From positions 22,871 through 82,585 of the forward strand of contig CAZDOR010000002.1 in NCBI GenBank assembly GCA_964507105.1: DNA of 59,715 nt, in the 5' to 3' direction. Position numbers and translations under genes: made by a program. The stretch is from an uncultured Candidatus Saccharibacteria bacterium (GTDB lineage: Bacteria; Patescibacteriota; Minisyncoccia; Minisyncoccales; PWPS01). Of this stretch, positions 44,155 to 52,474 are shown one piece after another; position 1 is the first letter of the stretch, and each line of letters starts with the position of its first letter. Below the pieces are notes generated by a model. That model was not told the DNA's origin, ran no database searches, and was given only the letters and a program-made list of their open reading frames with translations.

Positions 44155-45810
44155 TTATCGAAGATCGTTAATTTTGGAAACGGTCGCTTCTCCGACGTAT
44201 CCGGTCCCTTTTTCGAGATTCAAGGGTGTCAATATTTCTTCGGAATATTTTTCTTGGAATCTGATAACTGCTTTTTCAGTCGATTGACCGAAATTACCGG
44301 TTATCTTTCCTTCGGGATAAATTTCCGGTTTCCGGGACAGGAAAGTCTGCAGACAAGTAACCGACCTCTTGTCGGAAACACCCTTGTATAAGGGCATGTC
44401 AATAACGCAATTTTCCCACTCGGAACGATCTTTCTCCTCTCGCCTCTCCCTTATTTCTCTCAGAAGATCCATGAGCTCTTTCAGTTTATTCAATTTTTCT
44501 TCTCTTCTCAGTTCCTCCGGATCTTCGTCAAGCGACTCAATCTCCCACTTGAAATAAAATGATTCCCCATTACCGTTAAAACCTTCCGTTTTTTCCTGAA
44601 TGCTCGGCATGATGGTTATCGATTGATAATTGTTTTCGCGTTCTTCGGTATTGAAAATCCCTTTCCCGTTTTCTATTTCCATATACCCGATTTCAAGTTC
44701 TCCGGTATCAATTTCAAGTAAATAGGGAACTTTCGCTTCTACATCCTCATCCAAACTGAAAATTAATTCCAGATCTCTATTTATACCGGTTATTTTATGC
44801 CAATTACCCGTCCAATTTTTAGTTTTTGATTCAACGGAAAGACTTTTCGCTTCATCGGATACATAATTTATTACCGGATAAATGCGCATTTCCCTTAAAT
44901 TTTCATTCTTGAAGCAGTACCTCTCTCCCAATTCGCAATCATTTACCAGTGAGGCTATCTTGAAATTATTAAACACTTGATGAAAATCTTTTTCATGACC
45001 GATTTCCTCCAATGCATAATTTATACTTTCAATGCCCGTTTTTTGGCTTTTGAGAGACACGGAAAGAATTTCTATACCGTAATGATCAACCAAGTATTGA
45101 GTGAAAATATTAACTACCCCGTAATCTTCCTTTTTCTCATTCCATTCGGTAAGCGAAGTGTTCGGAGCCCGAAGAAAAGTATCTTTTCTTCTTGACAGAA
45201 TCCCGGTATCCGAATTATCATATCCCAGCCACGTGGGCATGAATTCCGCCCTGGCTTCATTGAGCCAGATCTCTTCTCGTACACCCCGCATTCTTTCTTT
45301 TTGATTGAATACCAAACTGTGCATAAATTCGTGCGCCAAAAAGCCGGCAACGTCATCGCGGTCCAAAACATCGGTGTTCAGATAAAGAAGGTTCTTTTCA
45401 TTGGAGCGAGGAATTTGATGTCTTGAATGCTGGTCCCCGGAATTGAAGTAGCCCCCCGCATTTTCGTGCATGGAATGAAAAAGAATCGATATTCTTTCAT
45501 CTTCTTCTACGGGATGAATCGGGGGAGGGCCGAACTCCGAAGTCATCTCTTTTTTAATAGTCGACTCGAACTCTTGATCGAGATGATCGACGACCTTCAA
45601 ATAATCTTCTTTTCCATCCAATTCTTCGATCCAATTTTCTTCGAAATAGAATTTCAGATTATCCGTCTCTTCAACCAAAATTGCACCCAACCGCTCTCTT
45701 CCTTTGAGGTCGAAATTTTCTTCTACGAAAAAATTGCGAGCATCATCGGCAAAAAGAAAGCTCACCGGAAGAAAGAGAAGAAAAAAAGTTGCAAAGATTA
45801 TTTTTTTCAT
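44155..45810 (-). CDS. Secreted HExxH zinc metallopeptidase (M30/M6-like) with a C-terminal peptidoglycan-binding domain
   Basis: Signal peptide; GGYFNS.D, LAHEFMH, WLNEA.AE; LQ.FL...G.FG..T..AV.RFQ...GYVG..T..KIN. Confidence 0.8.
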   Translation of the reverse strand: MKKIIFATFFLLFLPVSFLFADDARNFFVEENFDLKGRERLGAILVEETDNLKFYFEENWIEELDGKEDYLKVVDHLDQEFESTIKKEMTSEFGPPPIHPVEEDERISILFHSMHENAGGYFNSGDQHSRHQIPRSNEKNLLYLNTDVLDRDDVAGFLAHEFMHSLVFNQKERMRGVREEIWLNEARAEFMPTWLGYDNSDTGILSRRKDTFLRAPNTSLTEWNEKKEDYGVVNIFTQYLVDHYGIEILSVSLKSQKTGIESINYALEEIGHEKDFHQVFNNFKIASLVNDCELGERYCFKNENLREMRIYPVINYVSDEAKSLSVESKTKNWTGNWHKITGINRDLELIFSLDEDVEAKVPYLLEIDTGELEIGYMEIENGKGIFNTEERENNYQSITIMPSIQEKTEGFNGNGESFYFKWEIESLDEDPEELRREEKLNKLKELMDLLREIRERREEKDRSEWENCVIDMPLYKGVSDKRSVTCLQTFLSRKPEIYPEGKITGNFGQSTEKAVIRFQEKYSEEILTPLNLEKGTGYVGEATVSKINDLR

Positions 45811-47065: not shown

Positions 47066-47092
47066 AAAAAGAAAAACCGGGCTTAAACCCGG
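47066..47092 (-). terminator. Intrinsic terminator
   Basis: CCGGG-TTTAAG-CCCGG-TTTTTCTTTTT. Confidence 0.7.
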
Positions 47093-47595
47093 CGTATAAT
47101 TTTTCCCTCCTTTATTAATTTTTCAACTCTCTTTTGTAGAAAATAATGTGTTAAAATCTTCCGTTTATTAATGACCAAAAAGAAAATATACTCCAAAAAA
47201 TCAATAATTTCTTGATTATATAAATTTAAAAATAGCATATGCCATGCTTGGTGAAATCGTTCCGGGATAGTTACGACCTGATCTTTTTTCTTCTCCGAAA
47301 TTCGGTGATCACGACTGCGAGGTTTTACGTGATGAGAGTCATATGAACAAGATCGTGTTACATCCAAATAACCATTACTTCTCAACATGATGATTTCTTT
47401 CCTTTCAATTTTACCTCCTCCCTTTTTCCAATTCATTAGATTATTCAAATTTTCCAAAAAAACAAAAAGTTTCTTTCTGGAGGAAATATCGCCGAAAACA
47501 ACGGAAAAAGCGGCATAAAAAGAGTCGGGAAACCTACTGGATCCTATCTCGTCCAACAACGGAGCGGTTTCATTTCTTTTTCTTTTCCAATTCAT
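47083..47595 (-). CDS. Orphan with an HNH-like His-rich motif
   Basis: SD AAAGGAGG before the ATG at 47595; SHHVKPRSR...VTIPERFHQAWHMLF. Confidence 0.6.
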   Translation of the reverse strand: MNWKRKRNETAPLLDEIGSSRFPDSFYAAFSVVFGDISSRKKLFVFLENLNNLMNWKKGGGKIERKEIIMLRSNGYLDVTRSCSYDSHHVKPRSRDHRISEKKKDQVVTIPERFHQAWHMLFLNLYNQEIIDFLEYIFFLVINKRKILTHYFLQKRVEKLIKEGKIIRRV

Positions 47596-47648
47596 AATGG
47601 CCTCCTTTCGAAAGTCGAGAGCCAAAAAAATGTTAAAGAGCTTGCCAC

Positions 47649-47907: not shown

Positions 47908-47936
47908 AAAAAGAAAACCCCTCTCTTTAAGAGGGG
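47908..47936 (-). terminator. Intrinsic terminator
   Basis: CCCCTCT-TAAAG-AGAGGGG-TTTTCTTTTT. Confidence 0.8.
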
Positions 47937-47955
47937 GAATTGAGATGCACAGCGC

Positions 47956-48108
47956 TTATGAACAGTTAATGCATCTACCTCCCAAATCGAGATAGGCACC
48001 GCAAGTACATCTTTTTTGCTTGCCCGAAAATCCTTTCGGAGCACATTTCGGGCAATACCTGCCATAATAAACGTGTCCTTCTTTACATTCTCTTTCTCTA
48101 CGTGCCAT
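47956..48108 (-). CDS. 50-aa Cys/His-rich double zinc-ribbon-like microprotein (not in ORF track)
   Basis: SD GGAGGTGA; MARRERECKEGHVYYGRYCPKCAPKGFSGKQKRCTCGAYLDLGGRCINCS; followed by a terminator. Confidence 0.8.
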   Translation of the reverse strand: MARRERECKEGHVYYGRYCPKCAPKGFSGKQKRCTCGAYLDLGGRCINCS

Positions 48109-48120
48109 TTCAGTCACCTC

Positions 48121-48594
48121 CTATTGAATTTGATGAATTAATCCTCTATTTTTACACTCTTCAGGGTTCAACAATACTGATTCGGATATTAAATTTTTAA
48201 CCTCCGAGATAGTCATCCGTGACTCTTTAGCTATAAAATTCAAGTACCAATCGGTAAGATTTTCCTTTTTTTTCGCTTCTTCTTGCTCATGAAACTCCAA
48301 AGGGTGGAAAAGAATATGGGCATCTCTACTCATCACTCTCTTTTTTCCTAACAGAACCAAGGGTATCGCCGCACTGTCCGCGCGCCCCATCACTACCGTA
48401 TTTATCGGGATTTTTCGCATTCGGATTTCCTCACAAAAGCTGTGCGCCAACGGCAATATTCCTCCCTCACTATTTATCATCAAAGTAATAGGGAGGTTGT
48501 TTCTTTTTAATCTTCTCTCGATTTCTTTTATTGCCGCATCATACTCCAGATATTCCACTGCCCCGAACCAACGAACTACATTTTCAAATTCCAT
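48121..48594 (-). CDS. Minimal ClpP-like protease subunit (157 aa)
   Basis: INSEGG, VMGRADSAA (Ser), KR, ILFHP (His), LNPEEC...GLI. Confidence 0.85.
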   Translation of the reverse strand: MEFENVVRWFGAVEYLEYDAAIKEIERRLKRNNLPITLMINSEGGILPLAHSFCEEIRMRKIPINTVVMGRADSAAIPLVLLGKKRVMSRDAHILFHPLEFHEQEEAKKKENLTDWYLNFIAKESRMTISEVKNLISESVLLNPEECKNRGLIHQIQ

Positions 48595-48634
48595 TTTTAA
48601 TCCCTCCCTTTTCCTTTCAGTTCAACGTGATTAT

Positions 48635-48663
48635 ACTATATAATATTAATATAGATATGTCAA
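48635..48663 (-). promoter_or_regulatory. Putative sigma70 promoter of the clpP-like/Zn-protein unit
   Basis: TTGACA-17 bp-TATAGT. Confidence 0.6.
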
Positions 48664-51351: not shown

Positions 51352-51649
51352 ATTTAATTTTCATTCGACAAACACTCCGTAACTTCAATTATCTTTTCCG
51401 GATTATCCATATATCCGTATAATTCACCTCCCGAAATCAAAAAAATAAATAATATTCTAATATTTTTCCTGAAAAAAAGACTTTTCATTAATTTTTGCCT
51501 GCGAAAAAGTAACTCTTGTATCATAATAGCAAATTAAAAAATAGATACAACTTTTTAGTTTCGAAAGTGGCTAAGATAAAATTAAGTATTTTGACAAAAA
51601 TTTTTTTTATGATAATAAATTGTTAAGACATAAAAGGAGGGTTTTACTA

Positions 51650-52084
51650 ATGGAAATCAAAAGAGTTTACGAAAGAGCGAAAGAAATTTACTGTGAAGAC
51701 TGCGTTGAAAAAAGGCAACTCGAAGAAAAGAAAAGATGTATTCAGATCGAATTGGGTCAATGTCGGGATTGCGGTTACGAAAGAAATAAACGGGTAATCG
51801 TTCAGGAGGAGATCAACCGCCTAAACTCGGAAAAGGAAGAAATGGAAAGAGTGATATCCGGACTAAAAAATACGGACAGGTCGATAAAAATTTCCAGCCT
51901 GGCATTCGAAAGAACCGAAGATCTCGGAAATCGAATGAGAGAGATAAACAATCCGAAAACGATAATCAGAAGACTCCAACACTCCGTAAATATAGAAAAA
52001 GAAGAGCTAACGACAATTATCCGAAATCACATAGAAGCAATAGAAAGCCACAAAGAGGAGCTGAAAAAAGAGATCCCGGTCTAA
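51650..52084 (+). CDS. Orphan with two CxxC motifs and a coiled coil
   Basis: SD AAAAGGAGGG before the ATG at 51650; CEDC...CRDC; terminator follows. Confidence 0.75.
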   Translation: MEIKRVYERAKEIYCEDCVEKRQLEEKKRCIQIELGQCRDCGYERNKRVIVQEEINRLNSEKEEMERVISGLKNTDRSIKISSLAFERTEDLGNRMREINNPKTIIRRLQHSVNIEKEELTTIIRNHIEAIESHKEELKKEIPV

Positions 52085-52105: not shown

Positions 52106-52474
52106 TCAATATTCTCCTATTTCCAAATTATCAAGACTGTCTTCCGTTAAATTGTCTTCCATTACCTTTATCGCTTTATCTCTCAAGCCTTTTGGGATCC
52201 CGACTATAAGATATCCTTCCGAAGTAAATAGTTTGTATTTTGTTATCGCATCCTCCGAATCAATATCTTCTTCCGTTTTAACTTCTCCGCGTATTACCAC
52301 TTTGTTACGATAAAGACCCTCAACATGGGGTCTTTTATCTTCACCATCTCCCACTGAATCATTTTTAACCGGCTCGGTTCTTCCGCCTTGGCCATCAACT
52401 ACGACTTCATAGCCTATATTTTGCATAGCTTGGGCTATCTCCCTTTTTATTTTTTCTCGGTCGGTATCATTCAT
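52106..52474 (-). CDS. Hypothetical protein, restriction-endonuclease-like (PD-(D/E)xK) fold suspected
   Basis: GYEV...RPHVEG....VIRGEVKT..D; PD appears as PH. Confidence 0.55.
   Translation of the reverse strand: MNDTDREKIKREIAQAMQNIGYEVVVDGQGGRTEPVKNDSVGDGEDKRPHVEGLYRNKVVIRGEVKTEEDIDSEDAITKYKLFTSEGYLIVGIPKGLRDKAIKVMEDNLTEDSLDNLEIGEY

Follow-up and report, generated by a model that had tools for sequence, protein, structure and literature searches.

What can a ClpP do once it has lost its gate and its docking sites, and why would a small zinc-ribbon gene travel with it? ClpP is the textbook gated protease dependent on AAA+ unfoldases. The question is raised by a two-gene locus in a 59,715-nucleotide (nt) stretch of DNA, hereafter the window (contig CAZDOR010000002.1, positions 22,871 to 82,585), from an uncultured Candidatus Saccharibacteria bacterium. 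On the minus strand of the window an ORF of 157 amino acids (aa) resembling ClpP is followed by a cysteine-rich ORF of 50 aa. We find that the two genes form a self-contained bicistronic operon, strongly signalled and conserved, in this ultrasmall bacterium of the candidate phyla radiation (CPR, Patescibacteria). The explanation that we favour, at a little short of an even chance, is that the operon encodes an unfoldase-independent Ser-His peptidase together with a co-inherited zinc-ribbon partner. Such a paralog is a natural test case for a minimal ClpP: it could show what the bare head domain is capable of and how a cell restrains such an enzyme, with the small zinc-ribbon gene as the foremost candidate for its control. 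If the two products do not interact, the locus holds merely one more divergent ClpP paralog and a small ORF.

The 157-aa protein is a genuine but very divergent member of the ClpP family (MEROPS S14). It matches the Pfam CLP_protease family (PF00574) with 46.8 bits, where the cut-off is 20.2, and the match spans model positions 45-178 of 182. The scores against the NCBIfam ClpP models are far below their cut-offs (35.8 versus 228 bits, and 13.8 versus 308.6 bits for the TIGR00493 equivalog), and a word-based homologue search with the single protein returned the self-match only. A profile built from eight orthologues matches the canonical ClpP of the same genome with a probability of 98, the alignment beginning at canonical residue 34. 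The best PDB sequence matches are likewise ClpP chains. The AlphaFold2 model of the protein (predicted local distance difference test, pLDDT, 94.6) superimposes on ClpP chains with template modelling (TM) scores of 0.81-0.87 and Z-scores of 19.2-21.1, the root-mean-square deviation being 1.8-2.1 over 151-154 residues. Two membrane protease folds were considered and rejected: SppA (S49; Z-scores of 16.4 and 14.2) and the NfeD protease 1510-N (14.3) both rank below ClpP, and NfeD fails by profile as well (NfeD1b_N, 11.8 bits versus a cut-off of 40). Crotonases reach Z-scores of up to 14.6. Residues S74 and H97 align to the S97 and H122 columns of E. coli ClpP and, together with G44, G45 and G70, are invariant in all eight orthologues (35-51% identity). 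A preliminary description of this DNA, made from the sequence alone, had read the ORF as ClpP-like with Ser and His kept; the Pfam match above cut-off and the invariance of both residues agree with it.

Compared with canonical ClpP (PF00574; E. coli ClpP, PDB 1tyf), the protein exhibits the same fold, with Ser, His and the oxyanion-hole glycines in the same columns, but it lacks much of what surrounds them. To describe the losses, ten sequences of the family were mapped onto E. coli ClpP, with nine canonical CPR ClpPs as comparison. The gating loops (mature residues 1-18) are absent: zero or one residue precedes the residue-19 column in 10/10 sequences, versus 18-29 in the canonical CPR ClpPs. 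Eight residues are deleted directly after the catalytic His, in the region of the handle strand, and the C-terminal strand is missing, the chains stopping near residue 190. Neither R170 nor D171 is kept. The D171 column reads S, E, G, K, K, E, E, E, E, E across the ten sequences, and the window protein has its Ser there within the stretch ISESVLL. The missing pore loops, the shortened handle and this altered Asp region had all been listed in the preliminary description, and the E. coli ClpP alignment bears them out.

The docking pocket is changed as well. A preprint (bioRxiv 10.1101/820209) names, besides gate residues, L48, F49, A52, F82, L23, Y60, Y62, I90, M92, F112, L114 and L189 as residues of the ClpP docking pocket. 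In the family, the L48 column is E, K or V, the F49 column R, K, M, Q, E or D, and the L114 column S, E, D or G. These three of the positions named are thus polar or charged in 9-10 of the 10 sequences, as judged by alignment only, and the F112 column is variable. The canonical CPR ClpPs keep L48, L114, R170 and D171 in 9/9. The lack of a gate and the polar pocket positions support the view that the protein would be unable to dock an IGF/LGF-loop unfoldase in the classical way, and that it would have no gate to open. The earlier expectation that the sequence speaks against unfoldase docking is upheld to that extent.

The second gene shares the history of the first. Our orthologue search covered 61 related genomes; the genus is represented by nine genomes, counting the source genome (G000; 680 kb in 26 contigs). 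Orthologues of the ClpP-like gene are present in six of the eight other species of the genus (40-51% identity, E-values from 2e-34 to 1e-51) and, outside the genus, in a single genome of a neighbouring one (G018; 35% identity). The other 24 matches have E-values from 5e-7 to 9e-4, and most of them are open frames that, at about 200 aa, are as long as a canonical ClpP. In 7/7 of the genus genomes with the ClpP-like gene, a small Cys-rich ORF comes next downstream in the same orientation, after a gap of 5-37 nt or with a short overlap; in G003 a stretch of N interrupts this ORF. The remaining two genomes, G002 (100% complete) and G005 (85% complete), yielded neither gene. A search for co-occurrence, proposed beforehand as a check, has therefore found the pair adjacent wherever the genus has the protease gene, and both genes absent from its other two genomes. 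A profile of the small protein exceeds 60 bits solely in G000, G008 and G018 among 301 genomes of the order, and all three hold the ClpP-like gene too; G003 reaches 21 bits owing to its N run, and the other genomes at most 24.7 bits. A metagenome-contig search with a three-row alignment gave one locus, L060, a G004-type sequence with longer flanks. These observations support the two genes as a conserved, co-inherited unit. Full-text literature searches found no paper on such a protease/zinc-ribbon pair.

The arrangement is looser in G018, where a 58-aa homologue of the small protein is encoded two genes downstream of the ClpP-like gene. The intervening gene codes for a cytoplasmic protein of 116 aa that bears two zinc motifs of the zf-HC2 (anti-sigma) type (L013:2060-2410; L063:1096-1446). 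No sigma factor gene was seen within the 3 kb inspected.

The small protein exhibits the pattern C8-x3-H12, C19-x2-C22, C34-x-C36, C46-x2-C49. An alignment of seven small proteins (27-55% identity) reveals C8, C19, P20, C22, C34, C36, G44, C46 and C49 as invariant. The orthologues have eight Cys columns, seven of them invariant in 7/7 sequences; in the window copy the second Cys of the first knuckle is replaced and a His stands at +4. With its eight ligands the protein is a predicted double zinc ribbon, of two ribbons with two ligand pairs each. Like DZR (PF12773), DZR_2 (PF18912) and Zn_ribbon_6 (PF07191), it has four ligand pairs with the spacing of two ribbons. It differs from these families in remaining below their cut-offs, in being a free-standing protein of 50 aa and in being tied to a protease gene. 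No DZR match was obtained in Pfam for the window protein at E≤1, and the G018 homologue scores 21.6 bits against Zn_ribbon_6 and 18.2 bits against DZR_2, both below cut-off. At the same threshold Pfam listed no ClpX zinc-finger family for the small protein, in a search where short domains are easily missed. Its AlphaFold2 model is poor (pLDDT 58.1), and the ESM Atlas returns solely generic zinc-ribbon or hypothetical clusters (best score 0.83), a lead at most. A complex prediction for the two proteins scored 0.00, a value that, with the partner fold uncertain, weighs neither for nor against contact. Gene callers mostly miss these ORFs: exact look-ups failed in 6/6 cases, and a database record exists for the G008-type protein alone, which NCBI lists as hypothetical.

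These properties would also suit a protein that has nothing to do with the peptidase. The two genes might merely be co-transcribed, the zinc ribbon acting on its own as a small protein that binds nucleic acids or regulates, possibly as regulator of the operon itself. The small proteins begin with a basic N-terminus (MARRERE or MRRRK), the double zinc ribbon is generic, and longer relatives carry PF18912 and PF12773 with a repeated C-x2-C...G-R-Y-C-P-x-C module. The gene lying between the two in G018 points the same way, as does the lack of such a neighbour beside other short ClpP-like paralogs (0/29 loci). Simple co-transcription accounts less well for the strict adjacency throughout the genus, for the joint absence of the pair from two genomes, and for the restriction of the high-scoring small-protein profile to genomes with the ClpP-like gene. 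On balance we consider it somewhat unlikely.

How far is the stripped-down ClpP itself peculiar to this lineage? Searched with a profile, 1.84 billion representatives yielded 24,445 matches at E≤0.001; only five of these reach E≤1e-30, and they form a tight family. Beneath it lies a continuum of proteins with a median length of 175 aa, scoring 80-116 bits, where the tight clade reaches 156-234 bits. In the tree built with FastTree, the seven genus sequences are joined by P0005 and P0006 in a clade with a support of 100, and the G018 sequence falls outside on a long branch. We surveyed active-site residues in 145 of the best 150 representatives, omitting P0002-P0004 (duplicates of our own rows) and two sequences longer than 260 aa. 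Of these, 143 retain Ser and 144 retain His but only 24 retain Asp, and Glu occupies the Asp column in 54; a median of five residues precedes the column of canonical residue 34. The members checked bear the source name Clp protease subunit, or none. The short metagenome proteins (P0007-P0151, about 165-180 aa) and the solitary CPR paralogs thus share the truncated N-terminus, with Ser and His kept and Asp rarely so. They differ in their lower profile scores and in the absence of a Cys-rich small ORF at the loci inspected.

The stripped-down anatomy therefore recurs across a large, unstudied group of proteins of about 170 aa and in the short ClpP-like proteins of phages; what is specific to the lineage is the tight clade and its pairing with a zinc ribbon. 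The preliminary description had drawn attention to this anatomy, which is no peculiarity of the locus: Asp is rarely kept in the wider family, and the phage proteins are alike in fold and size. Two loci of the wider family, in other CPR genomes, were noted by eye: in G171 (L034:1495-2854) two tandem ClpP-like paralogs of 196 and 197 aa stand beside an HExxH-type ORF, and in G252 (L033:1483-3394) a short ClpP-like gene adjoins a serpin-like ORF of 419 aa.

The resemblance to phage proteins raises another explanation, namely that the gene is a domesticated or relic protease of the prohead-maturation type, with the small ORF a hitch-hiker. The NCBIfam model of ClpP-related head maturation proteases (NF045542) scores like the ClpP models, 35.2 versus 35.8 bits; the best PHROG is phrog_94, head maturation protease (E-value 4e-10); and BFVD phage proteins of 164-170 aa match the ClpP-like model with TM scores of 0.85-0.90 both ways. 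These proteases are similar in size and fold and also lack gating loops. Both NCBIfam scores, however, are well under their cut-offs (120 for NF045542), and tblastn against 50,697 phage records hit only seven, all at 28% identity or less. Unlike its phage counterparts the window gene is chromosomal, in a synteny conserved across species, and has no capsid or scaffold gene as a neighbour. The window neighbours include metK, DUF218 and membrane proteins. No capsid, portal, terminase or integrase family above cut-off was found among the tested neighbours, and no head-morphogenesis module in the window or its relatives, by Pfam and PHROGs. The PADLOC defence-system models matched none of the six proteins tested. 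We consider a phage origin improbable.

The genome also encodes a canonical ClpP (L001, G000:C4:42596-43132), with 276 bits in Pfam and 312.1 bits against TIGR00493, above the cut-off of 308.6. Accordingly the ClpP-like gene is an extra paralog, a real one beside a canonical ClpP, as had been supposed from the sequence. It could then encode an accessory subunit of the ClpR or ClpP1 kind, entering mixed rings with the canonical ClpP and tuning that protease. In Listeria, ClpP1 is a paralog that has a residue other than Asp in its triad and requires ClpP2; the top PDB matches of the window protein are Listeria ClpP1 chains (4jcr, 4jcq; 58 bits), and its Asp column is variable. Yet the handle strand, the Arg170/Asp171 pair and the N-terminal residues, which mediate the contact between ClpP rings, are lost here, the invariant Ser and His point to catalysis of its own, and the gene is dispensable in 2/9 genus genomes. 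We regard an accessory role as quite unlikely, though it, like the two other alternatives, retains a noticeable share of the probability.

A check for clpX, likewise suggested in advance, found none in the source genome (best score 26 bits) and none above cut-off in 31 genomes of the order, the control being positive in 10/14 known genomes. The only Hsp100 seen is a ClpB-like protein of 912 aa (L061, G000:C5:32020-34758; 1135 bits versus a ClpB cut-off of 1232). Its second AAA+ domain has a G-L-G-F stretch at what we take to be about the position of ClpA's ClpP-docking loop. This Hsp100 may be the real partner of the canonical ClpP.

In the explanation that we favour, the first gene would encode a minimal S14 peptidase that retains Ser74 as nucleophile, His97 as general base and the glycines of the oxyanion hole. 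It would have shed unfoldase coupling and ring-ring allostery along with the gating loops, some of the hydrophobic positions in the IGF/LGF pocket, the handle, the C-terminal strand and Arg170/Asp171. The product would most likely be an ungated peptidase acting on peptides or unfolded chains, like the phage ClpP-like head maturation proteases, the presumed model of ATPase-independent action. The second gene, 12 nt further on and with a strong Shine-Dalgarno site of its own, would encode a basic double zinc ribbon that is gained, kept and lost together with the first. Its co-inheritance suggests that the small protein most likely partners the peptidase directly, whether as its regulator, as an inhibitor or as a favoured substrate. 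A protease-system gene in one operon with the gene of a small cognate inhibitor or adaptor is familiar from staphopain/staphostatin and clpS-clpA; the operon logic, a protease-system gene plus the gene of a small cytoplasmic protein, is alike, by way of analogy only.

Several observations weigh against this explanation. The Y62, I90 and M92 columns remain hydrophobic, so that some docking may still be possible, and the loss of the pocket is read from an alignment at about 20% identity. The triad Asp column is not conserved (S/E/G/K), and the enzyme could therefore be weak or inactive. On the side of the pairing, adjacency and joint loss within one genus amount to few evolutionary events rather than many independent ones, the two genes are separated by the zf-HC2 gene in G018, and none of the 29 loci of other ClpP or ClpP-like genes inspected in the class has a Cys-rich small ORF nearby. 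Fusions of ClpP with a zinc ribbon were also absent from the best 150 representatives and from six longer relatives of the small protein, which is weak evidence.

A more specific form of the partnership would be a self-contained proteolytic switch sensing zinc or redox state, in which the ungated ClpP, able to cut unfolded chains only, would destroy its zinc-ribbon partner once this is unfolded. The zinc-ribbon protein would be folded, protected and able to act on its target only when zinc-loaded and reduced; oxidation or loss of zinc would unfold it and expose it to degradation without ATP or an unfoldase. The zf-HC2 zinc protein encoded between the two genes in G018 would fit the zinc-switch theme. 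We hold this specific form to be very improbable.

The signals that delimit the operon are collected in Table 1. Promoter, both Shine-Dalgarno sites, the two ORFs with their Cys and His ligands, and terminator are all present on the minus strand as first described. The scan of the region is by itself not above chance (four promoter-like sites versus 3.6 expected from shuffles), but the unit stands beyond chance because its architecture recurs in the orthologous loci. In 7/7 loci the orthologous start is preceded, at a distance of 55-69 nt, by a promoter with 11-12 of 12 consensus matches. Downstream of the small ORF, 6/6 readable loci have a G+C hairpin with a T run, two of these hairpins coming from the scan tool and four being read by eye. 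In every locus the two signals enclose just this pair of genes. Purine-rich GGAGG-like runs precede the orthologous ClpP-like starts, and GGAGG-type sites occur within the 12-37 nt gaps of the orthologous gene pairs. In the window the first G of GGAGGTGA is shared with the TAG stop of the ClpP-like gene, a one-base overlap. The small ORF has an alternative in-frame start, GTG at 48117, giving 53 aa. The public runs that contain the region are three DNA runs from one soda-lake study, with no RNA run among those listed.

Table 1. Features of the two-gene operon, in window coordinates
Feature	Position	Strand	Remarks
Promoter-like site, sigma-70-type, TTGACA-17-TATAGT	48635..48663	minus	11/12 consensus matches (scan)
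Shine-Dalgarno site GGGAGGG of the ClpP-like gene	48602..48608	minus	7 nt upstream of the ATG at 48594
Gene of the minimal ClpP-fold serine peptidase, 157 aa, Ser74 and His97	48121..48594	minus	
Shine-Dalgarno site GGAGGTGA of the small gene	48114..48121	minus	ends 5 nt upstream of the ATG at 48108
Gene of the predicted double zinc-ribbon protein, 50 aa	47956..48108	minus	ligands C8/H12, C19/C22, C34/C36, C46/C49
Intrinsic-terminator-like hairpin CCCCTCTTAAAGAGAGGGG and T run	47908..47936	minus	hairpin itself 47936..47918 (scan)

In relatives the pair is followed, after the terminator, by a gene for a conserved protein of 146-195 aa without known family and then by a convergent gene whose product has an HEYNH (HExxH-like) motif (L060:3733-5163; L008:2179-3313; L010:19-1185; L011:2278-2739; L012:2019-3067). 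The only full-length copy of the latter protein, 264 aa in L060, has a hydrophobic, signal-peptide-like N-terminus as judged by eye. Neither extension gene was found in the source genome, which nevertheless keeps the pair, and the two-gene unit is therefore the conserved core. Beyond the extension genes the relatives have a homologue of a 180-aa ORF of the window (47083-47625, minus strand). This ORF has no family match and shows by eye an HNH-like H-H...H-x3-H pattern; its homologue in L060 (5320-5994) is 224 aa long and occupies the same relative position.

Two other window proteins have look-alikes near the pair in relatives, in both cases recognised by eye. One, of 154 aa (51620-52084, plus strand), combines CxxC pairs with a coiled-coil tail, and its look-alike stands beside the pair in L010 (2097-2555); the other is an acidic protein of 122 aa (52106-52474, minus strand), resembled by one in L060 (1337-1708). 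Both are without known family. Elsewhere in the window, positions 44155-45810 (minus strand) encode a 551-aa protein that begins with a signal-peptide-like hydrophobic stretch and carries a PG_binding_1 domain (27.1 bits) at its C-terminus. An HEFMH motif and a weak SprT-like match are also present, and the protein may be a cell-wall-anchored metalloprotease.

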